DNA of 64,000 nucleotides from Candidatus Magasanikbacteria bacterium RIFOXYD1_FULL_40_23 (GTDB lineage: Bacteria > Patescibacteriota > Patescibacteriia > Magasanikbacterales > GWA2-37-8), in assembly GCA_001783215.1 (NCBI GenBank), contig MFRA01000005.1, positions 254,322-318,321 on the forward strand, read 5' to 3'. Position numbers and translations under genes: made by a program. Below are positions 3,087 to 60,801 of the stretch, piece by piece (the stretch's first letter is position 1; every line of letters begins with the position of its first letter). A model generated the notes under the pieces. It did no database searches, had not been told where the DNA came from, and saw only the letters and a list, made by a program, of their open reading frames with translations.

Positions 3087-4187
3087 TTATTTAGCTAGCT
3101 TCCAATTTGGATCGGCTTTTATTTTTTTCCAAGAAGTAAAATCTTTTTGTTTTGCGTGATGGTATCCGGCCACGGCAATCATAGCCCCATTATCCATAGA
3201 GTATTTTAGTTCTGGGAGTTGGAAGCGGGTGTTAGGGAAGTTGGCAGTAATTTCTGATTGTAGAGTTTCGCGCAGTTTTTTGTTGGCGCTTACTCCGCCG
3301 CATAGAATAATTGTTTTTGGTTTGTATTCTGCTGCAGCAGTCATAGTTTTGGCTACCAGCACATCTATAATCGCTTGCTCAAAACTGGCGCAGAAATCAT
3401 TTATATTCAAAGATTCTTTATTGTCACGCAGCCAATAAAGAGCGGAAGTTTTTAGGCCGGAAAAACTAAAATTATAATCTTTGCTGTTAAGCATCGGTCT
3501 AGGGAATTTTATTGCTTCGGTGTTGCCAGTTAGTGCAAGTTTAGAAATTTGCGGTCCGCCAGGGTAGGGTAGTCCGATTAATTTTGCACCTTTATCAAAA
3601 CATTCTCCGGCCGCATCGTCTATGGTAGCGCCAAGCAGTTTGTATTTGCCGTGATCTTTCATAATAATAAGTTCGGTGTGTCCGCCGCTTACCACCAAAC
3701 ATAGAGCTGGAAATTGTAAATCCGTTTTGTCATTCTGAGGCGCAGACGAAGAATCCCTTTTGTCCGACCGAGAGGGATCCTTCACTCTGTTCAGGATGAC
3801 AGTGTCGTAGTTTTTTATTTGGGTAGAATAAATATGTCCTTCTATATGGTTTGTAGAAACCAAAGGCAGGTCTGTTATATAAGACAGTGTGCGGGCAGCT
3901 TCTACACCTACCAATAATCCAGTGATAAGTCCTGGTCCAGAAGTAACAGCTACAGCGTCTGGTTTTGGTTGATTTTCTAACACCGCTTCTATAAGCGGTA
4001 CAATTTTTTCGGCATGCATACGGCCGGCAATTTCTGGAACTACGCCGCCATATTTTTTGTGTACATCAATTTGAGAAGCGGTTTTTTCGGACAAAATAAA
4101 ACAGCCTTTATCGGAGCAGTCTAGCAAGGCTACGGAAGTGTCATCACAAGATGATTCAATACCGAGTATTCGCATATTTATAACCAA
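3087..4187 (-). CDS. tsaD: tRNA N6-adenosine threonylcarbamoyltransferase TsaD (Kae1/Gcp family). Likely true start is the second Met (MRILGIESSCDD, about 4175). Carries an in-frame ~26-aa insertion from a palindromic repeat.
   Basis: MRILGIESSCDDTSVAL, HIEGH, VSGGHTELI and DNGAMIA motifs. Relative to E. coli TsaD (recalled from memory), the HIEGH-to-VSGGH spacing is ~26 aa longer, and that stretch coincides with the repeat at 3728-3801. Confidence 0.88.
   Translation of the reverse strand: MVINMRILGIESSCDDTSVALLDCSDKGCFILSEKTASQIDVHKKYGGVVPEIAGRMHAEKIVPLIEAVLENQPKPDAVAVTSGPGLITGLLVGVEAARTLSYITDLPLVSTNHIEGHIYSTQIKNYDTVILNRVKDPSRSDKRDSSSAPQNDKTDLQFPALCLVVSGGHTELIIMKDHGKYKLLGATIDDAAGECFDKGAKLIGLPYPGGPQISKLALTGNTEAIKFPRPMLNSKDYNFSFSGLKTSALYWLRDNKESLNINDFCASFEQAIIDVLVAKTMTAAAEYKPKTIILCGGVSANKKLRETLQSEITANFPNTRFQLPELKYSMDNGAMIAVAGYHHAKQKDFTSWKKIKADPNWKLAK
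3728..3801. repeat. Family-A palindromic element, copy 1, in frame inside tsaD (encodes ...NRVKDPSRSDKRDSSSAPQNDKTD...)
   Basis: tgtcattctgaggcgcagacgaagaatcccttttgtccgaccgagagggatccttcactctgttcaggatgaca. The ends gtcattctga / tcaggatgac are inverted repeats with a central GGATCC. Matches copies at 14967, 51288, 52651, 59991 and 60612. Confidence 0.85.
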
Positions 4188-4440
4188 GTTTGTCTAGGAT
4201 ATGTGCAAGTTGAATTTTTAATTCAGAGTGTCCCTTACCACCTTTTAGGTATTTTTCTCTTTGTCGAGCATCGTCTTCGTGTAAATATCCTTCGTAATAA
4301 ATTAGACGTATAGGCCTTCTATGTTTAGTTGCTAAAACAAACCCAGATTTATGTTTAAGTATTCTCTTTTTTAAATCGGAAGTAAACCCAATATAAAGTT
4401 TACCATCTTTTTGGCAATACAAAATATATACGTAGTACAT
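4156..4440 (-). CDS. GIY-YIG nuclease family protein (UPF0213-like)
   Basis: YVYILYCQKDGKLYIGFTSDLKKRILKH fits the GIY-YIG pattern Y..Y...DG.LYIG.T.DL.KR...H. 94 aa. Overlaps the annotated tsaD start by ~30 nt. Confidence 0.8.
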   Translation of the reverse strand: MYYVYILYCQKDGKLYIGFTSDLKKRILKHKSGFVLATKHRRPIRLIYYEGYLHEDDARQREKYLKGGKGHSELKIQLAHILDKLGYKYANTRY

Positions 4441-4467: not shown

Positions 4468-4505
4468 GGCACGCTTAGCGTGCCTATAACGACGCTAAGC
4501 GTCGT
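4468..4505. repeat. Twin palindromes built on the core ACGCTTAGCGT (ggcACGCTTAGCGTgcc ... acgACGCTAAGCGTcgt)
   Basis: Two perfect palindromes 4 nt apart, immediately 3' of tRNA(CAU) and 28 nt upstream of the GIY-YIG start. The same twin arrangement recurs at 23967-24003. Confidence 0.7.
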
Positions 4506-14966: not shown

Positions 14967-15040
14967 TGTCATTCTGAGCAAGGCGAAGAATCTCTTTCGT
15001 TTGGATGTAAAGGGATCCTTCATTACATTCAGGATGACAA
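14967..15040. repeat. Family-A palindromic element, copy 2 (intergenic)
   Basis: tgtcattctgagcaaggcgaagaatctctttcgtttggatgtaaagggatccttcattacattcaggatgacaa. Confidence 0.85.
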
Positions 15041-15046
15041 AAACGT

Positions 15047-15499
15047 ATGAAAAAAATATTACCAGTGTTTGTCGTTTTGTTAGTATTAGTAGGTGGAGGA
15101 TCTTTTTATGGAGGTATGAAGTATTCTGATAGTAAAAGAGTCTCAAGGTTTTCTGCCGATATGGCTGGGGGCGGTAATTTTCGTGCCGGCAATATAATGG
15201 GCGGTGGTGCGCCGCGTAGTACTGGAATGGCTGGAGGGAATGCCAGAGGAGTTGGTTTTGCAACCGGAGAAATTCTATCTAAAGACGATAGTAGTTTAAC
15301 TATAAAATTGCGTGATGGGGGCTCTCAGATAATTTTCTTTTCCACATCTACTCAAATTATGAAGTCATCTGCTGGATCAATGGGGGATTTAATAGTTGGA
15401 GAAAGTATTACAGTAAATGGTAGTACTAACCAAGATGGAAGTGTAACCGCGCAAAGCATTCAGTTACGTCCGGATATCGCTACATCTTCTATAAGGTAA
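15047..15499 (+). CDS. Gly-rich secreted/membrane-anchored hypothetical protein
   Basis: Signal/TM MKKILPVFVVLLVLVGGGSF, then Gly-rich GGGNFRAGNIMGGGAPRSTGMAGGNARG. Confidence 0.45.
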   Translation: MKKILPVFVVLLVLVGGGSFYGGMKYSDSKRVSRFSADMAGGGNFRAGNIMGGGAPRSTGMAGGNARGVGFATGEILSKDDSSLTIKLRDGGSQIIFFSTSTQIMKSSAGSMGDLIVGESITVNGSTNQDGSVTAQSIQLRPDIATSSIR

Positions 15500-23002: not shown

Positions 23003-23085
23003 TATATAGGGGCTAAAGCCACATATATGCTCATTCACTCAGAAATAAATAAGTTTACTTATTTATTTCTTCATTCATTTCGCAT
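23003..23085 (+). repeat. Family-C leader module, copy 1, ending at the start codon of the 23086 gene
   Basis: tatataggggctaaagccacatatatgctcattcactca + palindrome gaaataaataag-ttt-acttatttatttc + ttcattcatttcgcat + ATG. Confidence 0.75.
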
Positions 23086-23496
23086 ATGAAAGAATTTTTT
23101 GTTAGCTTATTTGTAATTATATTTGTAGCAGCGGTAGTTGTGTTTGGAGTTTTTCCTCCGAAGGTTTATGTTACATTTATTTCTGCGCAGAATAGTGTCT
23201 TGGCTGCAGAGCAAAAACAAATTACAGATGCTTTGCTTTGGCAATATAGTTATAATCCTTTGCGAGTAGGGCGAGAGTACCAGATAAATATGCCTAGCCC
23301 CGCACCCTTGAAAAATCCGGCAAAACAAGATTACCAATATTTTATTTGGGCAAGTGTAAAATCCCTATCTTTTGTAAAAGAATCAGAAGCAGGGGATAAT
23401 ACTTGGAATTTGGTTTTGGCAAAAGATAAAAATGGCAACTGGAAAATTGTAGCTGACAAGCTTTGTTGCGGGCAAGGGGTTGATGAATGGTATTAA
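23086..23496 (+). CDS. Hypothetical membrane-anchored protein
   Basis: N-terminal TM FFVSLFVIIFVAAVVVFGVF. 136 aa. Confidence 0.5.
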   Translation: MKEFFVSLFVIIFVAAVVVFGVFPPKVYVTFISAQNSVLAAEQKQITDALLWQYSYNPLRVGREYQINMPSPAPLKNPAKQDYQYFIWASVKSLSFVKESEAGDNTWNLVLAKDKNGNWKIVADKLCCGQGVDEWY

Positions 23497-23966: not shown

Positions 23967-24003
23967 CCAACGCTTAGCGTTGGTATGGGGACGCTAAGCG
24001 TCC
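23967..24003. repeat. Twin ACGCTTAGCGT-core palindromes, second locus (ccaACGCTTAGCGTtgg ... ggACGCTAAGCGTcc)
   Basis: Same architecture as 4468-4505, with flanking nucleotides changed in a way that keeps complementarity. Lies between the rny stop and the hup start. Confidence 0.7.
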
Positions 24004-26070: not shown

Positions 26071-26740
26071 ATGATTTGAAATTATCTAAATTAATAGCAT
26101 TTTTTAGTAAGTATTTGCCAATTTTTGTACGCATTAATTCTTGGCAATAAGCGCCAGTTTCTAACTTTGCGCCTATATCGTGAGCCAATGTGCGAATGTA
26201 GGTTCCTGCCGAACATTGTACTTCAATTTTTAAAATAGGCCAAGAGTATTCTAAAAGCTTAATTTTATAAATTTCTATTTCGTTTGCTTTTCTTTCTACA
26301 GTTATTCCTTTTCTAGCCAACTGGTATAGTCTTTGTCCGTCTACCCATTTGGCAGAAAACATTGGCGGAGTTTGTAGTTGTTTGCCAATAAAAGTTTTAA
26401 GTAGGCTTTTTATTTGTTTTTTGTCTGGTTGAATCATGCTGTGTGTATCATGCATCGTGATCTGTCCGGTTTTATCATCAGTATCACTTGTGGCTCCAAG
26501 TTTAATAGTAGCAATATACGTTTTGGGCATGTTTTTAAACCCGTCCAGTTTTTTGGTAGCTTCTCGGCCAACACCTACGATAAGCAGTCCGGTGGCAAAC
26601 GGATCCAGAGTGCCGGCATGACCAACCTTTACCCTTTTTTGTTTGTCGGGTAGGGGGGTCTTTTTAACACGGTTGCGTACAAAAGCTACAACATCAAAAC
26701 TGCTCCAGCCTTCGGGTTTGTTAATTAATAGGTAGTTCAT
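26051..26740 (-). CDS. truB: tRNA pseudouridine(55) synthase TruB
   Basis: INKPEGWSSFDVVAFVR...KVGHAGTLDPFATGLLIVGVGREATK, with the catalytic Asp in GTLDP. Confidence 0.9.
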   Translation of the reverse strand: MNYLLINKPEGWSSFDVVAFVRNRVKKTPLPDKQKRVKVGHAGTLDPFATGLLIVGVGREATKKLDGFKNMPKTYIATIKLGATSDTDDKTGQITMHDTHSMIQPDKKQIKSLLKTFIGKQLQTPPMFSAKWVDGQRLYQLARKGITVERKANEIEIYKIKLLEYSWPILKIEVQCSAGTYIRTLAHDIGAKLETGAYCQELMRTKIGKYLLKNAINLDNFKSYDEQSR

Positions 26741-26826
26741 AAACGAAATGAGTGAGCAAAGTAATAAGCCTGCTTAATTACTTTCGAGCGAATGAGTATA
26801 TATGCAGCTTTAGCCCATATATAGTA
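26741..26826 (-). repeat. Family-C leader module, copy 2, ending at the truB start codon (minus-strand orientation)
   Basis: Minus-strand read tatatgggctaaagctgcatatatactcattcgctc + palindrome gaaagtaattaagc-agg-cttattactttg + ctcactcatttcgttt + ATG(truB). Confidence 0.75.
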
Positions 26827-28972: not shown

Positions 28973-29365
28973 ATGAATTATGAGGCTAGAAAAATTAACA
29001 GCTTTGTTGATTTGAATGCTTGGCAGGAAGGGCATAAATTGGTTTTAGAAATTTATGAAATTACTAAAAAATTTCCCTCGGCAGAAAATTTTGGTTTGAC
29101 AAGTCAGATGCAGCGAAGTGCGGTATCTATAACTTCAAATATTGCAGAGGGTTTTGGCAGACAAACATATAAAGACAAAACACATTTTTATTTTATCTCG
29201 GCCGGTTCTTTAACAGAACTGCATAATCAAGTTATTATTTCCAAGGATTTAAAGTATATAACAATAGAAAAGTTCGGTGTTATAGGTGGTCAGATAATAA
29301 AGGTTCAAAAAATACTTAACGGCTTAATAAAAAGTTCAAAGTCTCGCATTATTCATAATTCCTAA
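28973..29365 (+). CDS. Four-helix-bundle protein (23S rRNA intervening-sequence protein family)
   Basis: AWQEGHKLVLEIY...FGLTSQMQRSAVSITSNIAEGFGR...ELHNQVIIS, the hallmark of the PF05635/TIGR02436 family. Confidence 0.8.
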   Translation: MNYEARKINSFVDLNAWQEGHKLVLEIYEITKKFPSAENFGLTSQMQRSAVSITSNIAEGFGRQTYKDKTHFYFISAGSLTELHNQVIISKDLKYITIEKFGVIGGQIIKVQKILNGLIKSSKSRIIHNS

Positions 29366-30462: not shown

Positions 30463-33400
30463 ATGCAGAAATACGATCCGAAAAAAATTGAAAAAAAGTG
30501 GCAGAAATATTGGGAAAAGAATAAAACTTTTGAAGTGCAAGAAGATGCTAAAAAAGATAAATTTTATTCTTTGATTGAGTTTCCTTACCCGAGTGGCGAG
30601 GGTCTTCATGTTGGCCATCCACGCCCATTTACGGCCATGGATGTGATAAGCCGCAAAAAAAGAATGGAAGGCAAAAATGTTTTGTTTCCCATTGGTTTTG
30701 ACGCTTTTGGTTTGCCGACCGAAAACTTTGCTATTAAAACCGGTAAACCGCCAGCCGAAGTAACGAAAAAAAATATTGCCAACTTTACCCGCCAGCTTAA
30801 AATGCTTGGGTTTAGTTTTGATTGGTCCAGGCAGGTAGACACTACTGACCCAAATTATTATAAATGGACCCAAAAATTATTTTTGCAATTTTTTAAACAT
30901 GGTCTTGCTTACAAAAAAAACCAGCCAATTAACTGGTGTCCAAAAGATAAAATCGGTTTGGCAAATGAAGAAGTGGTAAATGGAAACTGTGAGCGTTGCG
31001 GCACTCCGGTAGAAAAACGAAACAAAGAGCAGTGGATGCTTGCCATTACCAAATATGCCGATAAGCTTTTGGATGGTTTAAAAAACGTAGATTATATAGA
31101 GCGCGCTCGTTTGCAACAAGAGAATTGGATTGGTAAAAGCGAAGGTGCCGAAGTAGATTTCCCTCTTCGCATGGTACCAGGCCAGACAGATGATAAACAT
31201 TTTGTAAAAATATTTACTACTCGCCCGGATACAATTTTTGGGGCAACTTTTTTGGCAGTCTCTCCAGAGCTTGCTAAGAGTTGGTTAGATATAGGTTGGC
31301 AGGCTAGTGAAGAAGTAAAAAAATATATAACTCAGGCGCTTGAAGCTCGTACCGCGGTAACTGCTCGTGAAGAACAAGAAAAAACTGGTATAAGTGCCGG
31401 CATTGTGGCAATCAATCCAGTTTCCAAAAAAGAAATTCCAGTTTGGATAACCAATTATGTAATGGGTGAAGTTGGTACGGGTGCAATTATGGGCGTGCCG
31501 GCGCACGACCAGCGTGATTTTGATTTTGCCAAAAAGTTTGGATTGCCAGTTAAACAGGTGGTTATGCAAAATATTGTGGTGGCAGGTGCCGCCGCACCAC
31601 GAGAGGGCAAAGATTTAGTGCAGCGTAAAGTAGTGACAGGTATTATTCATAATCCAAAAAATGACACTTTTTTACTTTTACGACGTGCAGATAAAGAAAG
31701 TTCTTTCGTTGGTGGTACCATTGAAAATGGCGAAGATGCTATTACAGCCCTACGTCGTGAAATTGTGGAGGAAACTGGATATACAGATTTTGAAATTAAA
31801 AGTACTTCTTTTCCTAATTTTTTTGGTAATGGCTATAAATTACGTATTGATAAAAATTGTTTGGACTTTGAATATTTTTATGCAGTTGAGCTAAAGAGCG
31901 AAGATCGTCAGGAAGTCAGCAAGGAAGAACTAGCAAAGCATGAACCATTTTTGGTACCACGCGCAGAAGTGTCTAAGACAATTACGCTTACAATGCATCA
32001 ATACATGTGGAAATATTATACAGAGGAAAAACCAAAGTATTTAATTTTTGATTTTGATGGGGTAATTGGTAATACTTTTGAGGCGTGTGCTAAGGCACAG
32101 ATGGTTATAGATAATAAAAGTAAGGAAGAGGCAGTTGAAGCAATGACAAGATATTTTAGCAGTAAGCCAAATCATGCCAAGGGGCACAGTCTTACAGAGA
32201 TAGAGATGGTTGCGAAGCTTGATTGGACGCGCAGATTTGGCGAAGAAATGGCAAAGCTAGAGTATTCATTATTTAGTAAATTTAATAAAGAAATAAAAAA
32301 CATACCAAATACAAAGGTTGCTATTATTTCTGCGGGTTCCGGATTATATATTAGAAATAGAATAGAAGAAACCGGCCTTAACCCAAGCCATGTTCTTACC
32401 TTTGAAGACCATCATTCCAAAGAAGAAAAAATAGAACAGGTCTGCAAAGATTGGGGAGTGTCTATGAAAGACGTTTATTATTTCACTGATTCCAAAGCAG
32501 ACGTATACGAATTGGAAGATTGTTTGGATCGTAAAAAAATAATCGGCTGTGCTTGGGGTTATTGCGGGTATGATCTATTGCGAGAATTGTTGCCAGAAAA
32601 CCAGGTATTAAAAAATCCAGAAGATATCCATTTGTTATTTGCAGATTCGGTTTACGAAAATGAAGGTGTGGCTGTGGAGTCAGAATTTTTAAATGGTTTA
32701 AAAACACCGGAAGCTAAACAAAAAATGATTAGTTGGTTAGAAGAAAATAGAATAGGCAAAAAACAGATAAATTATAAACTTCGCGACTGGGTTTTTTCCC
32801 GTCAGCGATATTGGGGTGAGCCAATTCCGCTTGTGCATTGCGAGAAATGCTCTGGCTGGGTTCCTCTTCCCGAAGATGAATTGCCGCTCAAATTGCCAAA
32901 AGTAGAAAAATATCAGCCAACCGATAATGGCGAATCTCCTTTGGCCGCAATGGAAAAATGGGTAAAAACTAAATGCCCAAATTGTGGCGGTCCGGCCAGA
33001 CGAGAAACAGATACTATGCCAAATTGGGCTGGTTCAAGTTGGTATTTTTTGGCCTATGCAATGGGTGGAGAAAAAAGATTAAAAGAAAAAGGCGATAAGT
33101 TTTGGGATAAAGAAATGCTAAAACATTGGCAACCTGTAGATTGGTACAATGGGGGAATGGAACATACAGTTTTGCATTTGTTGTATTCTCGTTTTTGGAA
33201 TCAATTCTTGTACGATATTGGTATGGTGCCAACACCCGAGCCGTATGCCAAGCGCACATCACACGGCATGATTCTCGCCAAGGGTGGAGAAAAAATGAGT
33301 AAATCCAAAGGAAATGTTGTAAACCCGGATGAAATGGTGGAACAGTTCGGCGCTGATGCTTTGCGCGCTTATATTATGTTTATGGGTCCGTTTGATCAGG

Positions 33401-33957
33401 CAGTAGAGTGGGATACAAATGGGCTAGTTGGGGTGAAAAGATTTTTGGATAAAGTATGGAATTTGCAAGAAAAAGTTGAAAATAAAATTACAGATACTAA
33501 AATTGAGACGGCTTTACATCAAACTATTAAAAAAGTTACCGAAGATATAGATGCGATGCGGTTTAATACAGCGATTGCCAAGATGATGGAATTGGTGAAT
33601 GAGATGTCAAAAGCGGATAAGATTTCAGTTGTAAATTATACTTATTTAGTTCAAATTTTGGCGCCATTTGCTCCACACCTGTGTGAAGAACTGTGGGATG
33701 TGCTTGGACATGAAAAATCATTAGCCTGTGAATCTTGGCCGCAATTTAATCCGGAATTAATAAAGGAGAGTGAAGTCACTTTGGCTGTCCAAGTAAATGG
33801 AAAATTGCGCGATACAATAACTGTGGCCGCAGACATATCGGAAGAAGAGGCCAAAAGGACGGCGCTATCAAGCGAAGCAGTTAAGAAGTGGCTAGAAGGT
33901 AAAGAGCCAAAAAAAGTTATCTATGTAAAAGGCAAGTTGGTGAGTGTGGTGGTTTAG
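30463..33957 (+). CDS. leuS: Leucyl-tRNA synthetase with a ~400-aa internal insertion carrying Nudix-hydrolase-like and HAD-hydrolase-like modules
   Basis: HVGH (class I HIGH motif), CP1/editing blocks (TTRPDTIFGATFLAVSPE, VPAHDQRDFDFAKKFG), KMSKS, an anticodon-binding C-terminus. Insert at ~31570-32770 has GGTIENGEDAITALRREIVEETGY (perfect Nudix box Gx5Ex7REUxEExGU), LIFDFDGVIG (HAD motif I) and VAIISAGSG. Confidence 0.9.
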   Translation: MQKYDPKKIEKKWQKYWEKNKTFEVQEDAKKDKFYSLIEFPYPSGEGLHVGHPRPFTAMDVISRKKRMEGKNVLFPIGFDAFGLPTENFAIKTGKPPAEVTKKNIANFTRQLKMLGFSFDWSRQVDTTDPNYYKWTQKLFLQFFKHGLAYKKNQPINWCPKDKIGLANEEVVNGNCERCGTPVEKRNKEQWMLAITKYADKLLDGLKNVDYIERARLQQENWIGKSEGAEVDFPLRMVPGQTDDKHFVKIFTTRPDTIFGATFLAVSPELAKSWLDIGWQASEEVKKYITQALEARTAVTAREEQEKTGISAGIVAINPVSKKEIPVWITNYVMGEVGTGAIMGVPAHDQRDFDFAKKFGLPVKQVVMQNIVVAGAAAPREGKDLVQRKVVTGIIHNPKNDTFLLLRRADKESSFVGGTIENGEDAITALRREIVEETGYTDFEIKSTSFPNFFGNGYKLRIDKNCLDFEYFYAVELKSEDRQEVSKEELAKHEPFLVPRAEVSKTITLTMHQYMWKYYTEEKPKYLIFDFDGVIGNTFEACAKAQMVIDNKSKEEAVEAMTRYFSSKPNHAKGHSLTEIEMVAKLDWTRRFGEEMAKLEYSLFSKFNKEIKNIPNTKVAIISAGSGLYIRNRIEETGLNPSHVLTFEDHHSKEEKIEQVCKDWGVSMKDVYYFTDSKADVYELEDCLDRKKIIGCAWGYCGYDLLRELLPENQVLKNPEDIHLLFADSVYENEGVAVESEFLNGLKTPEAKQKMISWLEENRIGKKQINYKLRDWVFSRQRYWGEPIPLVHCEKCSGWVPLPEDELPLKLPKVEKYQPTDNGESPLAAMEKWVKTKCPNCGGPARRETDTMPNWAGSSWYFLAYAMGGEKRLKEKGDKFWDKEMLKHWQPVDWYNGGMEHTVLHLLYSRFWNQFLYDIGMVPTPEPYAKRTSHGMILAKGGEKMSKSKGNVVNPDEMVEQFGADALRAYIMFMGPFDQAVEWDTNGLVGVKRFLDKVWNLQEKVENKITDTKIETALHQTIKKVTEDIDAMRFNTAIAKMMELVNEMSKADKISVVNYTYLVQILAPFAPHLCEELWDVLGHEKSLACESWPQFNPELIKESEVTLAVQVNGKLRDTITVAADISEEEAKRTALSSEAVKKWLEGKEPKKVIYVKGKLVSVVV

Positions 33958-43189: not shown

Positions 43190-43416
43190 TATAGGGGCTA
43201 AAGCCCGCGGCGCGCTCACTCATTTCGATTATATGGGCTAAAGCCACATATATACTCATTCGCTCATAAATAATTTCATTAGAAAATAATTGAGCAAGCT
43301 CATTATTTTCTCACTCATTATTTAACTCACTCACTTCGTATATATAGTTAAACATATATTTTCACTCACTCGGAAATAAATAAGCAAGCTCATTTATTTC
43401 CTCATTCATTTCAAAT
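43190..43416 (+). repeat. Family-C leader module, copy 3 (tandem, with an extra truncated head), ending at the start codon of the 43417 response regulator
   Basis: ataggggctaaagcc-cgcggcgcg-ctcactcatttcg, then tatatgggctaaagccacatatatactcattcgctca ... palindrome ggaaataaat-aagcaagctc-atttatttcc + tcattcatttcaaat + ATG. Numerous TCACTCA/TCATTCA reiterations. Confidence 0.75.
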
Positions 43417-43788
43417 ATGAAAAAAATTCTTATAGTAGAGGACGAATTGGCGTTATTGTATGCTTTAGCATCTCAGTTTGATAAAAAAGAATTTAAAGTT
43501 CTTCAGGCTGTGGATGGCGAAGAAGGCTTAAAAACTGCCCTAAAGTCACATCCGGATTTAATTTTATTGGACTTGCTTATGCCGAAAATGGATGGCATGT
43601 CTATGTTAAAAGAATTGCGCAAGGATTCTTGGGGTAAGGGTGTAAAAGTAATAATTTTAACCAACCTAAGTGATGCAGAAAAAATTGATGAAGCGTTAAA
43701 GCAGGGGACATATGATTATTTAGTAAAAAAAGATTGGAACATTTCCGAAGTAATTGAAAAAGTGAAAGCTAGTCTGGGTATGAAATAG
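43417..43788 (+). CDS. Single-domain response regulator (CheY-like receiver)
   Basis: KILIVEDE...LLDLLMPKMDGMSMLKELR...KVIILTNL...YDYLVKK. Confidence 0.85.
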   Translation: MKKILIVEDELALLYALASQFDKKEFKVLQAVDGEEGLKTALKSHPDLILLDLLMPKMDGMSMLKELRKDSWGKGVKVIILTNLSDAEKIDEALKQGTYDYLVKKDWNISEVIEKVKASLGMK

Positions 43789-43792
43789 TGGT

Positions 43793-45400
43793 ATGCTGTT
43801 GTGGTTGGAAAAGATAAAAAGCGCCATGCTTCAATGGGTAATTGCGTGGCATGACTTCGTTAAATCAAAAAATAAAATGCTTATTGCGTTTTGTTTTTGT
43901 TTTATAGTGGGTGCCGGCGTATTCTCTCTTTTAGAAAATAATGGATCCTTATTTTATTTGTATCTTTTGTTATTCATCATTCTGTTTTTTGTAATAATTT
44001 TTTGGCATAAAAAATATATAAGATTTTTGTGTCTATGTCTGCTGTTTTTTATATTGGGGGCGTGTAGATTTTTGATCAGTATCCCAGAAAAAAATTTTGC
44101 GAGAGTGGAATTCTATAATGGAGAAAAGAAGGTGTTGCGAGGGTTTGTATCCAGTGAGCCGGATATTGGGTTAAGTGATGCCAGGTATGTTGTGCGGGTG
44201 GAGAGTGTAAAAGAAGATCAAAACTCTAAATCCGTGTCTGGCAATATTTCTGTTAAAACCAGGATTTATCCCGAATATAAATATGGCGACACGCTAGAAA
44301 TAGAATGTTTATTGCAAGAGCCAGCCAATTTTACCACCGCCTCAGCGGGGTCCCGCCTCATGGCGGCGAAAGATAGTAAATTCAATTATATAAAGTATCT
44401 AGCCAAACAGGGTGTGTGGTCGATTTGCAGTAATCCGAATATAAAAAATTTGGACGAAAATAAAGGTAATATTTTGGTAAGCTTTATGTTAAAAATAAAA
44501 AGTAAAATAAAAGTTCAAATAGCCAGTCTGTGGCCGGAGCCGAACAGTAGCCTAATGGCCGGGTTGCTCTATGGCAGTCGTAGTGGCTTGCCGCAAGAGT
44601 TGGTAGATAATTTTAGTCGTACGGGAGTTAGTCATATTGTGGCTGTGTCCGGATACAATGTTAGTATAATTGCCGTGGCTTTAAATATCATTTTAATTTA
44701 TGCGGGTTTGTTTAGGCGGCAATCTTTTTGGTTTTTAATATCTTTAATTTTGGCGTTTGTATTTTTTACCGGAGCCACTGCTTCGGTGGTGCGAGCGGGA
44801 ATAATGGCTATAATTATTTTGGCTGCCCAACATATCGGCCGGATGTCGGCGGTAGGCAGAGCGCTAGTTTATGCAGCTGTTGTCATGTTAGTTCTTAATC
44901 CGTATTTGTTAGTTTGGGACGCTGGTTTCCAGCTTTCTTTTTTATCTACACTCGGATTGGTTTATCTTTCTCCGATTATTCAATATTTTGTCGATAGTAA
45001 ATTTAAAATCGAAAGTAATTTATGGAAGTCGGCTTTAGAAGTTTTTATTACTACAATTTCTGCGATTTTGGTCACTTTGCCGCTTATCATGTATCAGTTT
45101 GGTAGATTTTCTGTTGTTGCACCGCTAGTTAATATTTTAATTTTGTGGATTGTGCCATGGCTTATGTTGTTTGGGTTCATATCTTTGGTTTTTAGTTTTA
45201 TATTTTTCCCAGTTGGGCAGCTGGTTGCTTGGGGCACAGACCTGGGAGTTAGGTATGTTATAATGGTAGTGGATTGGTTTGGAAGCAAGAGTTGGAGTGC
45301 CTTTAATTTGCGAATTTCTTTGCCGACAATGGTTGTTATTTACCTAGTATTAATCTTATTTATATGGCGAAAAAAGCCAAAGTTTTATCTTCAGAAGTAG
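43793..45400 (+). CDS. comEC: ComEC/Rec2 DNA-internalisation channel (DUF4131 plus competence domain; no MBL domain in this ORF). True start may be MLIAFCF, about 43877.
   Basis: Multi-TM throughout. GVSHIVAVSGYNVSIIA (ComEC SGxH-like block). Family-B repeat copy overlaps the annotated N-terminus. Confidence 0.75.
   Translation: MLLWLEKIKSAMLQWVIAWHDFVKSKNKMLIAFCFCFIVGAGVFSLLENNGSLFYLYLLLFIILFFVIIFWHKKYIRFLCLCLLFFILGACRFLISIPEKNFARVEFYNGEKKVLRGFVSSEPDIGLSDARYVVRVESVKEDQNSKSVSGNISVKTRIYPEYKYGDTLEIECLLQEPANFTTASAGSRLMAAKDSKFNYIKYLAKQGVWSICSNPNIKNLDENKGNILVSFMLKIKSKIKVQIASLWPEPNSSLMAGLLYGSRSGLPQELVDNFSRTGVSHIVAVSGYNVSIIAVALNIILIYAGLFRRQSFWFLISLILAFVFFTGATASVVRAGIMAIIILAAQHIGRMSAVGRALVYAAVVMLVLNPYLLVWDAGFQLSFLSTLGLVYLSPIIQYFVDSKFKIESNLWKSALEVFITTISAILVTLPLIMYQFGRFSVVAPLVNILILWIVPWLMLFGFISLVFSFIFFPVGQLVAWGTDLGVRYVIMVVDWFGSKSWSAFNLRISLPTMVVIYLVLILFIWRKKPKFYLQK
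43818..43872. repeat. Family-B hairpin repeat, copy a (RR-comEC junction)
   Basis: aagcgccatgcttcaatgggtaattgcgtggcatgacttcgttaaatcaaaaaat; the stem gccatgc/gcgtggc is retained. Confidence 0.65.
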
Positions 45401-46528: not shown

Positions 46529-47395
46529 ATGAATAGCAAAAGTAAAAAAATTTTATTGGCCGCTAGCGCAGTTCTAATTATTTCACTGGGCCTGCTTGGT
46601 TATTTTCTATATAAATCCAGCACTAAACACAGTTTTAAAATTACTTTTTTTGATATCGGACAAGGCGATGCGGCTCTTATTCAGTTTGATAATGGCCAGA
46701 AAATGCTGGTAGATTGTGGTGCGGATAGAAAAATTTTAGCCAAGCTTGGCCGGGCGTTGCCTTTTTATGACCGCACCATAGATTATGTTTTGGCTACTCA
46801 TTCGGATTTAGATCATTATGGTGGATGTGTAGACGTTCTCAAAAATTATAAAGTAAAAGAAATTATTTTAAATAATCGTAAAAAAGAATATGATCCGTAT
46901 TGGCGAGAATGGGACAAAGCAGTAAAAAACGAAGGGGCAAATATAAAAATTATAGACAGTCCGCAAGTTTGGACAATTGCTAGTTCTACTTTGGAATTTT
47001 TATCTCCCGACTCATCTCTGGCGTTGGAAGTTGGGGCAGATGATAGCAATAATTATTCTATTGTTTTTAGATTAAAGAATCAGGAAAAGAGTTTTTTGTT
47101 TACTGCGGATATGGAAACCCCGCTCGAGAACGCGTTGTTGAAAAAGTATTGTGTTAGCACTTCCACCAAACCTTGCACGGTTTTGGAGTCAGATATTTTA
47201 AAAGTTGGTCATCATGGCAGTGACAGCTCTTCAGGCGAGGAGTTCTTAAGAGCAGTAAATCCACAAAAAGCCATAGTGTCCAATGGTAAAAACAATCGGT
47301 ACGGCCACCCATCTTTGCGAGTTTTAAAGAAAGTGGAACGTTCGGGAGCGGAAATACTGCGAACCGATAAATTGGGCAATATTATAGAGTATTGA
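46529..47395 (+). CDS. Membrane-anchored MBL-fold metallo-hydrolase (ComEC C-terminal beta-lactamase-like domain as a separate protein)
   Basis: N-terminal TM LLAASAVLIISLGLLGYFLY. FFDIGQGDAALIQF...LATHSDLDHYGG (HxHxDH) ...VGHHGSDSS. Confidence 0.75.
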   Translation: MNSKSKKILLAASAVLIISLGLLGYFLYKSSTKHSFKITFFDIGQGDAALIQFDNGQKMLVDCGADRKILAKLGRALPFYDRTIDYVLATHSDLDHYGGCVDVLKNYKVKEIILNNRKKEYDPYWREWDKAVKNEGANIKIIDSPQVWTIASSTLEFLSPDSSLALEVGADDSNNYSIVFRLKNQEKSFLFTADMETPLENALLKKYCVSTSTKPCTVLESDILKVGHHGSDSSSGEEFLRAVNPQKAIVSNGKNNRYGHPSLRVLKKVERSGAEILRTDKLGNIIEY

Positions 47396-49972: not shown

Positions 49973-50917
49973 ATGGAACTAGAACAATCTCTCCGCCAGT
50001 CAATACTTAGCACTCTAGCATATTTTGATTTATCTCAATTTCCCCTTACCAAAGAGGAACTTTTTGTTTTTCTTTGGGAGCCGCCGACCGTTAATTACGC
50101 AGATTTTTTGGAATTATTACAGACAGATAGTTTTGTAAATGGTAATTTTGAAACCAAAAACGGTTATTATTTTTTGCCAGGACGCCAAGAATTAGTAGAA
50201 ATAAGAAGACGCAGATTAATTATTTCAGAAAAGAAATTAAAGATTGCCAGGCGAGCGCTTAGAATAATTAGATCAGTTCCGTTTCTGAAAGCGGTATTTG
50301 TTTGCAATACGGTGGCATCAGAGCAGGCAAGTATAGATAGTGATATAGACTTTTTCATCGTTACAGCCAAGAACAGGATTTGGATTACCAGATTATTTGT
50401 TACATTTTTACTAGGACTGTTTAGATTGAGGCGTGTTAAAAATCGTGTCAAAGATAAAATTTGCCTTAGTTTTTATGTTACCGAAGAAGCTTTGGACCTG
50501 TCCAAATTTAGAGTAATAGACGACGATGTTCACTTTGCTTTTTGGATAAACCAAATGTTGCCGGCGTATGATCCGGATAATTTTTATGCCAAATTTTTGG
50601 AAGCAAACAGTTGGACAAAAAAGTATTTACCAAATATAAATAGTAGTAGCGCTTCTTCGTATATTTTTAGGATTACCAATTCTAAATTAGGCAAAATTTG
50701 GAAGAGTGCATGGGAGAAAATGTGGGAGGGGAGTTATGGCAGCTTAATTAATGAGGAAGCCAAAAAAATACAGATTTCTAAGATGAAATTTTCTGGTAAC
50801 AAAATAGACCGAGGCGATGATAAAGGAGTGGTAATTTCTGATTCTGTATTAAAATTTCACGAAAAAGATACTAGAATTGAATATAGAGAATTATGGAAAA
50901 ACAAAATCGGGGTTTAA
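49973..50917 (+). CDS. Hypothetical protein with a minimal nucleotidyltransferase-like motif
   Basis: VCNTVASEQASIDSDIDFFIVT fits the G[SG]...DxD pattern of the Pol-beta-type NTase fold. Otherwise unrecognised. Confidence 0.4.
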   Translation: MELEQSLRQSILSTLAYFDLSQFPLTKEELFVFLWEPPTVNYADFLELLQTDSFVNGNFETKNGYYFLPGRQELVEIRRRRLIISEKKLKIARRALRIIRSVPFLKAVFVCNTVASEQASIDSDIDFFIVTAKNRIWITRLFVTFLLGLFRLRRVKNRVKDKICLSFYVTEEALDLSKFRVIDDDVHFAFWINQMLPAYDPDNFYAKFLEANSWTKKYLPNINSSSASSYIFRITNSKLGKIWKSAWEKMWEGSYGSLINEEAKKIQISKMKFSGNKIDRGDDKGVVISDSVLKFHEKDTRIEYRELWKNKIGV

Positions 50918-52263
50918 TTTTGCAAGAAGTTCAACATGTGTTAGCGTTGTTGTTTTTGTTTTTGCTGCCATGGCAAACCAGATATATTTGGAAGTATGGC
51001 CAATTAAATGGCGGCTATTGGGAGTATGGCACGGGCAGTCTGTATGTAACAGAGATTTTATTGTGGGTTATTTTGGTATTATTTTTTGTTAATAATTTTT
51101 TAAAGAAAGAAGTTTGGGTCGGTTTGTTTAAAAATAAAAATGTTTTTTCTTTGGTGTTCGCTGGGTTTTTAGCTGTGGTGGGCGCATCAGTAATGTTGAG
51201 CGAAAATTTTGGCATCTCCTATAATTATATTTTCCGTATTTTGGAGGGCATGGCCATAATGACGGTGCTGTTTCGGAGCGGGCAGTCTGTCATCCTGAAC
51301 GGAGTGAAGGATCCCTTAAACACAAATGAAAGGGATTCTTCGGTCGCTTTTCTTCCTCAGAATGACAGATATGTAGTTGCTATTTGGCTTGGCGCGGTAG
51401 GGCAGGGAGCGCTGGCGATTTATCAGTTTTTGACCCAGCATGTTTTTGCCAGCAAGTGGCTAGGTATGGCAGCGCAAGAGTCGTACAACTTGGGCCCAAG
51501 CGTAATACAATTTGCTGACCAGAGGTGGTTGCGCGCCTACGGTAGTTTTGGTTCGCCAAATTCTTTGGGGATTTATTTGGCTGTGTTATTTGTATTAGGT
51601 TTTATTTTATATTTTAAAACGCAAATACCGCGCTATAAAATTTTAATTAGCGTAGGTCAATTATTTATTTTATCTGGATTGTTGCTTTCTTTTTCTCGCG
51701 GGGCGTGGTTGGCAGCTTTGGTTGGTCTGGCATCTCTTTTTATTGTTTTATTTTTTAAACAAAAAGATTTTTTACGAGATTTTATAAAACAGATCGTATT
51801 TGCTTTGGGTGTAGCTATATTTTGGATTATTATTTTTTATCCAGTTTTTAACGCCAGATTTAATTTGCAAAATCGTTTGGAAGCCACGTCTGTTTCCGAA
51901 AGAAAAGGGCAGTATAGCGAATCTTTATCTTTTATTAAATTAAATCCAATTTTTGGGGTTGGGCCGGGCGTATATACTTTTGCTTTGGCCAAAAAATATC
52001 CAGATTTAGCTTCGTGGCAGCTGCAGCCAATACATAATATTTATTTACTTATTCTCGTAGAGATGGGCATATTTGGTATGTTGGCTATATTTTTATCAGT
52101 TGCCAGTATTGCTAGACTGATACTTAAAAATAACTTAATTTACGCACCAGTTTTGACGGCTTTGTTTGCTTCTGGAATGCTAGATCATTGGTTGGCCAGC
52201 CTGTTTACAGGCATGGTTTTTTGGTGGGTAGTCTTGGGTTTAGGCCTAAAAAAGAACCCTTGA
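50893..52263 (+). CDS. O-antigen ligase/polymerase-like (Wzy_C-type) polytopic membrane protein carrying an in-frame Family-A repeat
   Basis: About 10-12 TM helices with a periplasmic loop containing RGAWLAALVGL-type Wzy_C features. Inserted peptide VILNGVKDPLNTNERDSSVAFLPQNDRYV. Confidence 0.55.
   Translation: MEKQNRGLILQEVQHVLALLFLFLLPWQTRYIWKYGQLNGGYWEYGTGSLYVTEILLWVILVLFFVNNFLKKEVWVGLFKNKNVFSLVFAGFLAVVGASVMLSENFGISYNYIFRILEGMAIMTVLFRSGQSVILNGVKDPLNTNERDSSVAFLPQNDRYVVAIWLGAVGQGALAIYQFLTQHVFASKWLGMAAQESYNLGPSVIQFADQRWLRAYGSFGSPNSLGIYLAVLFVLGFILYFKTQIPRYKILISVGQLFILSGLLLSFSRGAWLAALVGLASLFIVLFFKQKDFLRDFIKQIVFALGVAIFWIIIFYPVFNARFNLQNRLEATSVSERKGQYSESLSFIKLNPIFGVGPGVYTFALAKKYPDLASWQLQPIHNIYLLILVEMGIFGMLAIFLSVASIARLILKNNLIYAPVLTALFASGMLDHWLASLFTGMVFWWVVLGLGLKKNP
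51288..51368. repeat. Family-A palindromic element, copy 3 (in frame in the Wzy-like gene)
   Basis: tgtcatcctgaacggagtgaaggatcccttaaacacaaatgaaagggattcttcggtcgcttttcttcctcagaatgacag. Confidence 0.85.
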
Positions 52264-52650: not shown

Positions 52651-52747
52651 TGTCATTCCGAATCCCTTTTGTGGGGTGAGGAATCTTTGTCCATATTGTT
52701 GTTAAGTACAGAGATCCCTCGTCGCTACGGCTCGCTCGGGATGACAA
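52651..52747. repeat. Family-A-related palindromic element, variant copy (groES-groEL intergenic)
   Basis: tgtcattccgaatccc...gatccctcgtcgctacggctcgctcgggatgacaa. Terminal inverted repeats tgtcatYccg and the central gatcc are retained. Confidence 0.7.
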
Positions 52748-58509: not shown

Positions 58510-59739
58510 ATGCTTGGTGATAGAAAAAGTAAGTTAGAAAAGAATTTCTTCAAAATTTTTTTCATTAACGCCCTTCTTAATGTAAAGATGATAAATATTG
58601 TTATCTCTTTATTTTATGTTTACCGTAGTTTGCGAGTGGCAGATATTTTTTATTTAGGAGTTGTGTATTCGGCTACGGTAATACTAAGCGAGGTGCCATC
58701 AAGTTATTTGGCCGATAGATTTGGCAGAAAACGCACTATTATTATGGCCGCATTTTTTGGTCTTCTGCACTGGGTATTTTTTTTAACCGCAAATTCCTTT
58801 TTTCTATTTGCAATCGGCATAGTGTTTTATGCGCTGGCCGAATCTTGTATGAGCGGTACGGACGAAGCTTTTGTTTATGATACCAACAAAGAACTTAATA
58901 ACCAGTCTCAGTCATTACAAAAATTAAGTCGCTATTTTTCTTCCGAAAGATTTTTCAAAATATTTTCTGCGTTTTTGGGCGCTATTATTGCCAAAGATTT
59001 ACTGGATTGGCAATTTAACTCAATTATTATGGTAGATATGGTAGCGTCTGTGGTAGCTATTATCTTTGCCTTTACATTACTCGAGCCGAATCATTTTATG
59101 GATGTAGAAAAGCAGGAGGCTGGATTGATAAAGGATGCTTATAAAATTTTATCCAGAGACAAAACACTTATGTTTAGCGTACTTAATAAGCTGCTTGTGC
59201 TTATTGGCGCTCACTTGTGTTGGGCCTATGCCACGGTTTTCTTTGTTGATAACTTAAGCATATCTGTTGTAACTATGGGTATAGTTTGGAGCGTGTATCA
59301 TTTCTTGGTGTTGGGCGCCAGTCATTTTTTGCATTCTTTATGGCCAAATCATTCCGAAACAGTTAAGATTAATATGCTAAGCGCCGTTGTTTCGGCGGCT
59401 TTGGGGATGTTTCTTTTCAGTTGGTTCTTTTTCCCATATAAGTATATCCTTTTAGCGTTTTATCTTATAGTAGAATTCACTGCTTCTATAAGACAGCCTA
59501 TTTTTTCCAATATTTTTAATAAGCAATTCTTCTCCTATAATAGAGCTACCACCTTATCTATGGCCAATTTTGTCCAGCATGTATTTCAGATCCCGTTACT
59601 GCTGCTCACGGGCTGGCTTGTCGGTATAAATATTATTTTTCCGTATGTAGTTGCTTTATTCCTAGCGCTTGCCGCAGTTCTTTATTTTAGAATAAATCAA
59701 AAAGAACCTAACAATGTATATGTCTCAAAAACTATTTAA
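58510..59739 (+). CDS. MFS transporter
   Basis: About 11-12 TM helices. ADRFGRKRTII (MFS motif A-like GRKR) between TM2 and TM3. Confidence 0.75.
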   Translation: MLGDRKSKLEKNFFKIFFINALLNVKMINIVISLFYVYRSLRVADIFYLGVVYSATVILSEVPSSYLADRFGRKRTIIMAAFFGLLHWVFFLTANSFFLFAIGIVFYALAESCMSGTDEAFVYDTNKELNNQSQSLQKLSRYFSSERFFKIFSAFLGAIIAKDLLDWQFNSIIMVDMVASVVAIIFAFTLLEPNHFMDVEKQEAGLIKDAYKILSRDKTLMFSVLNKLLVLIGAHLCWAYATVFFVDNLSISVVTMGIVWSVYHFLVLGASHFLHSLWPNHSETVKINMLSAVVSAALGMFLFSWFFFPYKYILLAFYLIVEFTASIRQPIFSNIFNKQFFSYNRATTLSMANFVQHVFQIPLLLLTGWLVGINIIFPYVVALFLALAAVLYFRINQKEPNNVYVSKTI

Positions 59740-60622
59740 TGAAGATTATCTAAAGCATCTTTGCCAAAAATACAGCCTTACCCCGTCCAAAAAATATGGG
59801 CAGAATTATTTGGTAAATCCAGAGCCGATAGAAAAAATGGTAAATGCAGCAGAAATTAAAAAAGACGATGTGGTAGTAGAAGTGGGTCCGGGATTTGGCG
59901 TTCTTACGTTAGCTTTGGCAGAAAAGGCAAAAAAGGTAATTTCATTTGAAATTGAAAAAAAATTGACGACCTACTGGAAAAATATTACAGGTCATCCTGA
60001 ACGGAGTGAAGGATCCCTCTTGGCGAACGAAAGGGATTCTTCGGCAGAGCCTCAGAATGACAAATACAAGAATATAGAAATAGTTTGGGGAAATATATTA
60101 TACGAATTTAAAGGTGATGGATTAAAAGCGGGGGAGTACAAAGTAGTAGCCAATTTACCATACCAAATTACTTCGCATGTAATTAGGAAATTTTTGGAAA
60201 TGGAAAACAATCCAGATATGCTGGTGCTTATGGTGCAAAAAGAGGTAGCCGAAAGAATTTGTGCGCAAGCAGGTGATATGTCTGTTTTGGCGGTATCTGT
60301 TCAATATTATGGCAAGCCAGAGATTGTCACTTTTGTGCCACGTTCATCTTTTTGGCCAATGCCGGCGGTGGATTCGGCAGTAATAAAGATAAAAATAAAT
60401 AAAGATAATGCAGGTGCTAAAAATAATAGCGAATCTTTTTTCAAGCTTGTAAAAGCTGGTTTTTCTAGTCGTAGAAAAATGCTTATCAAAAATCTAAGCG
60501 CGGTAGCGGACAGGCAAGCTCTACGCAACCTATTTAAAGAACTGGGTATAGACGAAAAGGTGCGAGCGCAAGAATTAAGCGTGGAGCAGTGGAAAGAAAT
60601 AGTTGCCAAATTGTCATTCTGA
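59714..60622 (+). CDS. rsmA: 16S rRNA (adenine1518/1519-N6)-dimethyltransferase RsmA/KsgA. Has an in-frame Family-A repeat, and its last residues plus stop codon come from a second repeat copy.
   Basis: YGQNYLVNPE, VVEVGPGFGVLTLAL, NLPYQITS. Inserted peptide GHPERSEGSLLANERDSSAEPQNDKYKN. C-terminal ...KLSF-TGA lies inside ttgtcattctga. Confidence 0.85.
   Translation: MYMSQKLFNEDYLKHLCQKYSLTPSKKYGQNYLVNPEPIEKMVNAAEIKKDDVVVEVGPGFGVLTLALAEKAKKVISFEIEKKLTTYWKNITGHPERSEGSLLANERDSSAEPQNDKYKNIEIVWGNILYEFKGDGLKAGEYKVVANLPYQITSHVIRKFLEMENNPDMLVLMVQKEVAERICAQAGDMSVLAVSVQYYGKPEIVTFVPRSSFWPMPAVDSAVIKIKINKDNAGAKNNSESFFKLVKAGFSSRRKMLIKNLSAVADRQALRNLFKELGIDEKVRAQELSVEQWKEIVAKLSF
59991..60062. repeat. Family-A palindromic element, copy 4 (in frame in rsmA)
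   Basis: gtcatcctgaacggagtgaaggatccctcttggcgaacgaaagggattcttcggcagagcctcagaatgaca. Confidence 0.85.
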
Positions 60623-60684
60623 AAGAAGTGGGAGAGCTCCTTTTAAAGTTTAAGGGATCCTTCGCTGCTGTGGCGGCTCAGGAT
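60612..60684. repeat. Family-A palindromic element, copy 5 (partial; spans the rsmA stop codon and the downstream hairpin)
   Basis: ttgtcattctgaaagaagtgggagagctccttttaaagtttaagggatccttcgctgctgtggcggctcaggatgg, then hairpin ggtttttgc-ttgcgac-agcaaaaacc. Confidence 0.7.
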
Positions 60685-60801
60685 GGTTTTTGCTTGCGAC
60701 AGCAAAAACCACTTATCCCCATTATTTTTTTATTTTGTTTGTGTTATAATATTGGAAGTAAGCAAGTGAAGCAATGAAGCTTATTTTAACCGATAGTTAG
60801 T

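Follow-up and report, generated by a model that had tools for sequence, protein, structure and literature searches.

The Ssn proteins (cd10448) are site-specific GIY-YIG nucleases of ~94 amino acids (aa) that cut only single-stranded DNA (ssDNA) (Chenal et al. 2025, Nat Commun, PMC11893778). Ssn binds its cognate hairpin only in the single-stranded form and makes its cut in one strand only, a few bases upstream of the hairpin. The repeat concerned, termed NTS (CGTCATTCCCGCGMAVGCGGGAATCYRG) or, more generally, Ssn-related motif (SRM), is a directional hairpin, which occurs near 71% of the ssn genes and on both sides of 42% of them. Chenal et al. likened the resulting arm-ssn-arm layout to an insertion sequence (IS) and drew a parallel to the repetitive extragenic palindromic (REP) sequences and their RAYT transposases. 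NTS are reported within genes in just 2% of cases, natural transformation in Neisseria is modulated by the NTS/Ssn pair, and Rickettsia is listed among the genomes with more than 300 SRMs (PMC11893778). Here, we describe a short dispersed repeat, called family A, in a 64-kb stretch of DNA (the window; G+C content 39%) from a Candidatus Magasanikbacteria (Patescibacteria) genome of the Rifle aquifer data set. We argue that this repeat is probably an inverted doublet of SRM-type hairpin arms, which has entered conserved genes of its host in frame.

Other described systems share part of this behaviour. Rickettsia palindromic elements (RPEs) are ~150-bp palindromic sequences, described in Rickettsia, which lie in frame in unrelated housekeeping genes and add to their products a conserved peptide compatible with the fold; the review that treats them mentions no mobilising enzyme (PMC10969869). 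In REP systems the enzyme is an HUH Y1 transposase, and the tags of the REP super-families are GTAG or CGTC (see PMC3733652). Miniature transposable elements with inverted repeats (MITEs), among them Correia, ERIC, Nezha and QMITE1, are small elements that are dispersed and non-autonomous, and occasionally fuse in frame with host open reading frames (ORFs) (PMC10969869). A literature search on palindromic elements or MITEs in the candidate phyla radiation (CPR, or Patescibacteria) gave nothing relevant, no other paper was found that links Ssn to such elements, and a search for the words of the repeat sequence gave primer matches only.

Copies of family A were identified in the window with the pattern GTCATYCTGA-N(40-70)-TCAGRATGAC, and 100 dinucleotide-preserving shuffles of the window served as the control. 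The pattern matched four copies (copies 1, 2, 3 and 5, Table 1) and none of the shuffled windows (0/100). An nhmmer profile of the copies added the degenerate copy 6 (match at 60613-60685, E = 6e-13), the right end of which has decayed to CTCAGGATGG, and matched only faintly a divergent 93-bp variant (52654-52744, E = 0.5). Among the four good copies, pairwise identities range over 75-89%; their identity to copy 6 is ~62-67%, and to the 93-bp variant ~55%. The full sequence of copy 1 is GTCATTCTGAGGCGCAGACGAAGAATCCCTTTTGTCCGACCGAGAGGGATCCTTCACTCTGTTCAGGATGAC. Half of the window copies lie in frame within genes, i.e. tsaD, a Wzy_C-family gene and rsmA, and all three are oriented alike with respect to the coding strand. 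The first arm of copy 5 is read in a frame unlike that of copies 1 and 3, and the frame is restored by a spacer shorter by one base. A further contribution to rsmA comes from copy 6, which provides the last residues of the protein (KLSF) together with the TGA stop codon at 60620-60622 (TTG TCA TTC TGA).

Table 1. Positions of the family-A copies, their host genes and the Ssn-like gene in the 64-kb window
Feature	Position	Strand	Length	Context	Evidence or product
Family-A doublet, copy 1	3729-3800		72 bp	in frame in tsaD	minus-strand peptide VILNRVKDPSRSDKRDSSSAPQND
Family-A doublet, copy 2	14968-15038		71 bp	intergenic; 27 nt after MacB/FtsX-type permease gene, 8 nt before DUF5666 gene	
Family-A doublet, copy 3	51289-51366		78 bp	in frame in Wzy_C gene, residues 133-158	peptide VILNGVKDPLNTNERDSSVAFLPQND
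Divergent variant	52653-52745		93 bp	groES-groEL spacer	GTCATTCCGA...TCGGGATGAC
Family-A doublet, copy 5	59991-60061		71 bp	in frame in rsmA	peptide HPERSEGSLLANERDSSAEPQND
Degenerate family-A copy 6	60613-60686			overlaps rsmA 3' end	
tsaD	3087-4175	-		host gene of copy 1	PF00814 homologues, E = 1e-240 and below
Wzy_C-family (O-antigen ligase-like) gene	50893-52263	+		host gene of copy 3	PF04932, E = 2e-22
rsmA (ksgA)	59714-60622	+		host gene of copy 5	PF00398, E = 2.5e-48
Ssn-like single-domain GIY-YIG nuclease gene	4156-4440	-	94 aa		PF01541 residues 1-67, E = 2e-15

An earlier reading made from the letters alone (the sequence-only reading) had proposed such a dispersed palindromic repeat, with three copies in frame in conserved genes. 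Both the repeat and the three insertions, whose host genes were identified by Pfam or homology, are real, and the insert peptides quoted in that reading are correct. It also placed the TsaD insert rightly, between the HIEGH motif and VSGGHT, but overestimated its size: the protein has a net gain of 22 aa compared with the nearest orthologues, not ~26 aa. The GGATCC described as central sits in one of the arms (AGGGATCCTTC), while the other arm has GAATCC. The proposed orientation bias holds for the three window copies and for two tsaD copies from other genomes (L212 and L213, see below), but it is not universal, as in other genomes the CHSERSEESLS...AQDDK-type inserts of RsmA have the opposite polarity.

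Each element consists of two inverted arms, and each arm has the layout T-GTC-ATYCT-GA-(mini-stem of 2-3 bp and triloop)-GA-AGRAT-CCC. All the window arms begin with T-GTCAT, and the tail of the arm is ATCCCT or ATCTCT. The segments ATYCT and AGRAT are complementary within the arm in 265/275 arms (146 of the C/G type and 119 of the T/A type) and mismatched in 10. Every window copy combines one T/A-type with one C/G-type arm (in copy 1, 3729-3757 read on the plus strand and 3773-3800 read on the minus strand, respectively), whereby each arm is perfectly self-complementary and the pairing from arm to arm contains mismatches. The inner GA...GA segment can form at least two nested pairs in 209/275 arms, compared with ~26 expected from shuffles (~8-fold), and its commonest forms are GCGCAGC, GCGAAGC and GCGTAGC (GCGNAGC). 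Because each arm keeps its internal complementarity at the expense of arm-to-arm pairing, this comparison identifies the single arm, and not the long palindrome, as the conserved unit.

Family-A arms occur across most bacterial phyla. A scan with the pattern GTCATYCTGA-N-GAAGRATC-N-GATYCTTC across bacterial genomes, one for each species, returned at least 120 stretches, and the matches listed include Acidobacteriota, Chloroflexota, Nitrospirota, Bacteroidota, Clostridia, Planctomycetota, Omnitrophota, Gemmatimonadota, Proteobacteria, Verrucomicrobiota, Armatimonadota, Patescibacteria and others, as well as the cultured isolates Mucilaginibacter, Pedobacter and Bifidobacterium. Among these listed matches the arms have the same T-GTCAT head as in the window, and their consensus is GTCATYCTGAGCGNAGCGAAGRATCT-(loop)-AGATYCTTCGCTNCGCTCAGRATGAC. 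A generic scan of the window for GTC followed by a hairpin (stem of 6 bp or more) found 16 sites, compared with 19.9 ± 3.8 in shuffles; it showed no enrichment and missed family A.

The arms correspond in layout to SRMs, including the NTS/dRS3 repeats of Neisseria. In both cases a directional head, (H)GTCAT, is followed by a hairpin that starts from the AT of the head and by the tail ATCC; inverted arms can bracket a single-domain GIY-YIG gene of ~94 aa, as those of family A do at one locus (L076, see below); and the repeats, found in many phyla, far outnumber the gene. The SRM head HGTCWY stands directly 5' of the hairpin in the family-A arms, and the semi-palindromic hairpin is followed by a tail of the form RNCYNB (ATCC...). 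The hairpin itself differs from that of published SRMs in having a 5-bp stem and GA...GA around a mini-hairpin, with at least 11 nt between the stem halves. Family A is also unlike the published SRMs in forming a tight gene-less doublet and in the share of its window copies that lie in frame within genes (half, versus 2% of NTS within genes). Its host belongs to the Patescibacteria, and neither this group nor RPEs, MITEs or in-frame insertion are mentioned in PMC11893778.

The repeat class (Ssn/SRM) is therefore already described, whereas its in-frame spread in tsaD, rsmA and Wzy proteins is not. This changes how the element is to be regarded in comparison with the sequence-only reading, which implied an undescribed element restricted to one lineage: the arms are of the SRM/NTS class (PMC11893778) and are found across most bacterial phyla. 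The likeness to RPEs drawn in that reading stands as far as behaviour is concerned, since family A is a palindromic repeat that lies in frame in unrelated housekeeping genes and encodes related peptides there, but the element is not isolated, as its arms belong to a wider class. Similarly, the repeat is palindromic as proposed, although the palindrome as a whole is not what is conserved. What appears to be new is the arm variant missed by the published pattern, the compact doublet, and an unusually high frequency of in-frame insertion in essential genes of Patescibacteria.

The window itself encodes an Ssn-like protein, in an ORF located 356 bp from copy 1, the 3' end of which overlaps the tsaD start. 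Its catalytic positions (Y..Y, YIG, R, H and E) are conserved in the alignment, and among solved structures the UPF0213 proteins 1zg2 and 1ywl (PDB) come nearest. Relatives of this gene at 37-57% identity are bracketed by SRM-type hairpin arms. In an Omnitrophota locus (L076), a 96-aa GIY-YIG ORF lies exactly between the family-A arms GTCATTCTGAG...GAAGAATCTC and GAGATCCTTC...CTCAGGATGAC. In locus L001 (17554-17917), an Ssn-like gene between pheT and pheS is bracketed by NTS-type GTCATTCCCGCCGCAGCGGGAATCC arms, and the same layout was found in locus L121. Small GIY-YIG genes are variably present between close relatives: the one next to tsaD occurs only in the window and is missing at the same position in L001, L003 and L004, and the one between pheT and pheS occurs only in L001 and is absent from L003.

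This association was quantified at 62 evaluable Ssn-like metagenome loci, compared with 161 shifted controls. An upstream arm was present at 37/62 loci (8/161 controls), a downstream arm at 43/62 (11/161), and arms on both sides at 30/62, with none of the controls (0/161) showing this arrangement. These counts reproduce the published frequencies of 71% for a nearby repeat and 42% for repeats on both sides (PMC11893778). The stems differ among the loci yet remain complementary. The published SRM pattern gave 0.33 matches per kb on these loci.

Comparison of orthologues indicates that the inserts are lineage-specific and not ancestral loops, in agreement with the sequence-only reading. A relative whose TsaD is 89% identical at the protein level (P0002, locus L001) shares the TsaD insert, which is absent from orthologues at 85%, 83% and 78% identity, L003 and L004 being among the insert-free loci. 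The RsmA insert of copy 5 is absent from the six closest orthologues, including those of the L001 and L003 genomes, and RsmA orthologues at 69-82% identity are without it. Distant TsaD and RsmA orthologues of Patescibacteria carry other palindrome-type peptides, frequently at the same loops. Of the 120 TsaD homologues compared, at least 22 carry inserts of 15 aa or longer in the loop after HIEGH, and these inserts fall into at least four peptide families, i.e. VIL(S/N)..KD...RDSS..PQND, VIAS...IAASL, CHCEE..RRGNL and RRRGIS..ILRFAQND. The view that the loops of TsaD, RsmA and Wzy are ancestral in the lineage, with the DNA similarity being secondary, could appeal to the inserts found at the same positions in distant orthologues, but it is almost certainly wrong, given the close orthologues without inserts, the single DNA repeat that encodes all three peptides and also occurs between genes, and the different spacers or other arm families of the same-loop inserts elsewhere.

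Two tsaD genes from other genomes bear on the mobility of the doublets. In L212, a near-identical 78-bp copy of the same sub-family, with the same spacer (CCCTTTCRTTTGTGTTTAAGGG) as the Wzy copy of the window, occupies a different tsaD loop, whereas in L213 an independent copy with a different spacer lies in the same loop as in the window; the polarity of both is that of the window copies. Taken together, these two loci argue from sequence that the doublets are mobile and that the same permissive loops have been struck repeatedly. A further arrangement was seen on an IMG/VR contig (L209, 8985-9375), where at least five family-A doublets are repeated in tandem with a period of ~88 nt, forming a cluster similar to the bacterial interspersed mosaic elements (BIMEs).

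Some observations on RsmA orthologues should be added. The KLSF ending of rsmA (TTGTCATTCTGA), followed by the stop codon, recurs in several orthologues, including P0131 and P0152, and the 3' end of the gene often consists of arm sequence; orthologue P0174 ends with VIPAKAGIQ, which corresponds to an NTS-type arm. Orthologues P0129 and P0152 (69% and 60% BLASTP identity to the window protein, respectively) have near-identical inserts, CHSERSEESLSQS.NGQRSF...QDDKC, at a shared second site (alignment columns ~315-395); other RsmA orthologues are without these inserts. This distribution suggests a hot spot or recombinational exchange.

The inserted peptides seem to be tolerated by the host proteins; VKDPSRSDKRDSSSAPQNDK is an example of a peptide spanning the insert. 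In an AlphaFold2 model of TsaD, the predicted local distance difference test (pLDDT) score is below 50 only in the insert residues 127-149, and the remainder is confident (mean pLDDT 82.6). The insert is thus predicted to be carried as a disordered loop. As protein identity is high despite high synonymous divergence, the comparison suggests that tsaD with the insert is still under purifying selection. The breadth of the phenomenon across protein families was judged from the TsaD and RsmA alignments. A search for other host proteins with a 59-aa concatenated insert peptide gave no match, nor was there any at E <= 0.001 for a 30-aa insert query among 1.84 billion representative proteins.

At the DNA level, the tsaD genes of the window and of L001 are 81.6% identical and have diverged by 41% at third codon positions. 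The 40 arm-core bases are the same in both genes (P ~2e-4), including 14 that are third positions (P ~7e-4), and all of the 8 changes inside copy 1 lie in hairpin loops or the spacer. Zero change in the arm cores, despite such third-position divergence, implies constraint at the DNA level. It points to arm cores that are either under DNA-level selection, e.g. for recognition by a protein, or homogenised between copies, and not to selection on the peptide.

Based on these observations, we suggest, with moderate confidence, that the family-A element is a non-autonomous inverted doublet of SRM-type hairpin arms, a gene-less form of the arm-ssn-arm cassette, which would be mobilised in trans by Ssn. 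The full-length form of the class would be a cassette of ~370 bp, in which a gene for a single-domain GIY-YIG protein (Ssn) of ~95 aa lies between two inverted arms, and the elements of 72-78 bp would be such cassettes without the gene. The Ssn nuclease would spread or maintain the doublets in trans, presumably by acting on ssDNA at replication, repair or DNA uptake, in a manner comparable to that of RAYT with REPINs (paired, inverted REP sequences). Intragenic copies would survive only where the net length keeps the frame, where the reading frame used is without the terminal TGA, and where the hydrophilic peptide of 22-26 aa falls in a tolerant surface loop; the host protein would then bear the insert as a disordered loop.

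Several results weigh against this interpretation. The published SRM pattern, HGTCWYN(0-2)YYVSBRHN(0-5)WNVSBRGN(0-2)RNCYNB, has 0 matches in the window and matches 0/4 of the arms tested. No family-A arms surround the Ssn-like gene of the window, and L076 is the only locus in which family-A arms themselves bracket an Ssn gene: a profile search for Ssn-like proteins in 808 kb of family-A loci found only known genes and no further bracketed locus, and a scan of viral contigs for arms 290-320 nt apart gave 3 loci, with an Ssn ORF in none. In the literature found, there is no demonstration that Ssn drives transposition, the reported role being in natural transformation (PMC11893778). Signs of the insertion event itself are also missing: none of the six window copies is flanked by a target-site duplication, and no clean boundaries between empty and filled sites were obtained, either in the tsaD loop, which is too diverged, or at the pheT-pheS site (filled in L001, empty in L003). 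Finally, the single-arm hairpins have nearest-neighbour DNA energies of -1.6 to -2.4 kcal/mol (z ~0), while the long palindrome folds better than shuffles (-13.3 kcal/mol, z = -2.7), and the covariation within arms could derive partly from clonal spread of the two arm types. Nearest-neighbour parameters may give too little weight to sheared G.A pairs and GNA triloops. Support for the arm hairpin comes from sequence comparison and not from thermodynamics.

Another explanation is that the copies are more than selfish passengers and are kept because they benefit the host, e.g. as an mRNA-stabilising or terminator-like hairpin, as a site where a protein binds to control DNA uptake or recombination, or as a useful peptide module. 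The invariance of the arm cores between the tsaD lineages speaks for it, as do the position of intergenic copies directly after genes and the copy that gives a stop codon. The RNA of the whole element folds better than shuffles (z = -3.0 to -5.4 in the four exact copies; -1.5 to -3.5 in copy 6 and the variant), the NTS/Ssn pair of Neisseria modulates natural transformation, and ComEC is encoded in the window. However, recognition by Ssn, or gene conversion among the copies, could account equally well for the constraint. The nearest relatives manage without the inserts, the insert peptides vary widely among lineages (at least four arm families), and the TsaD insert is predicted to be disordered. 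No T-run follows the intergenic copy 2, and no Rfam family matches the repeat, the only Rfam matches in the window being two tRNAs. For these reasons we consider a benefit to the host unlikely as the cause of the persistence of the copies.

Family A could also be a classical MITE, i.e. what deletion has left of a DDE-type insertion sequence, moved in trans by the transposase of that element via its terminal inverted repeats. It is short, non-autonomous and dispersed in several copies that end in inverted repeats, and the same sub-family is found at different sites in different genomes. On the other hand, the six copies are without target-site duplications, no transposase domain was found in the 49 ORFs (>=94 aa) of the window that were scanned, and no parent IS came to light in the window. 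The ends are hairpin arms whose sequence and internal structure are conserved across phyla, which is unexpected of IS ends; to our knowledge, the known MITE families are confined to narrower groups. The only gene found between such arms encodes a GIY-YIG nuclease. On balance, an origin from a DDE-type element seems improbable.

It is similarly hard to credit that the doublets are REPINs mobilised by RAYT (an IS200/IS605-type Y1 HUH transposase) instead of Ssn. The logic of the two systems is the same, with inverted, paired hairpin repeats, recognition of ssDNA and a nuclease gene flanked by its own repeats, and the analogy was drawn by Chenal et al. themselves (PMC11893778). Yet the family-A head is T-GTCAT, not GTAG or CGTC; REPs are extragenic, whereas family-A copies are often intragenic; and none of the 49 window ORFs scanned has a Y1 transposase domain (PF01797). 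The bracketed gene encodes a GIY-YIG nuclease in L076, L001, L121 and 30/62 metagenome loci. A role for RAYT is therefore improbable, and mobilisation by Ssn in trans remains the reading that we prefer.

A wider proposal, which we put forward as tentative and regard as rather doubtful, is that the in-frame palindromes of CPR, the RPEs of Rickettsia and the NTS/dRS3 repeats of Neisseria form one superfamily of gene-less doublets, whose autonomous form would be a ~370-bp Ssn cassette that encodes nothing but the GIY-YIG ssDNA nuclease of ~95 aa. RPE peptides such as DPVVKPRDD may correspond to SRM arms. A BLAST search of plasmids with an SRM arm gave no Rickettsia record.

A few features of the window deserve mention beside the main subject. 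At the end of copy 2 (15029-15049, CAGGATGAC) there is an AGGA ~11 nt ahead of the ATG of the next gene, so copy 2 may provide the ribosome-binding site of that gene. Parts of a DNA-uptake machinery, i.e. ComEC and a metallo-beta-lactamase-fold protein, are encoded at 43793-45400 and 46529-47395. Given the presence of ComEC, a role of the repeat in handling incoming ssDNA is possible, by analogy with Neisseria. Other small repeats occur as well. Two adjacent mini-hairpins, ACGCTTAGCGT...ACGCTAAGCGT, are found at 4471-4502, between tRNA-Met and the GIY-YIG gene, and at 23970-24001, just 3' of the RNase Y gene. Another family, TATAGGGGCTAAAGCC...CTCATTCACTCAGAAATAA, is intergenic, with direct and inverted copies at 23003-23100, 26736-26823 and 43190-43431, three of its copies being clustered upstream of a response-regulator gene. 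The leucyl-tRNA synthetase ORF (30463-33957, plus strand, 1164 aa) contains NUDIX (aa 388-503) and HAD_2 (aa 527-681) domains after the editing domain, and an architecture with this insertion is unusual. A gene for a 23S rRNA intervening-sequence protein (a bAvd-like four-helix bundle; 28973-29365, plus strand) adjoins infB.

If our interpretation of family A is correct, the Ssn/SRM system described in 2025 would be extended by a missed arm variant, a doublet form and frequent in-frame insertion. The abundance of SRMs has probably been undercounted so far, because the published motif misses a variant found in most bacterial phyla. The gene-less doublet would behave as a mobile element, and Ssn would be a testable candidate for the enzyme behind RPE-like elements. 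This would also explain a large class of spurious or odd annotated peptides, e.g. VILSEAKDL, HPERSEGS and PQNDK. Should the more tentative superfamily exist, Ssn cassettes would be a class of their own among mobile elements, very small, present across phyla and moving through ssDNA, and would in general give rise to loop insertions in the essential proteins of reduced genomes. For the Patescibacteria, the mobilisation of gene-less doublets by Ssn would provide a mechanism for the numerous lineage-specific loop insertions in the proteins of their reduced genomes.

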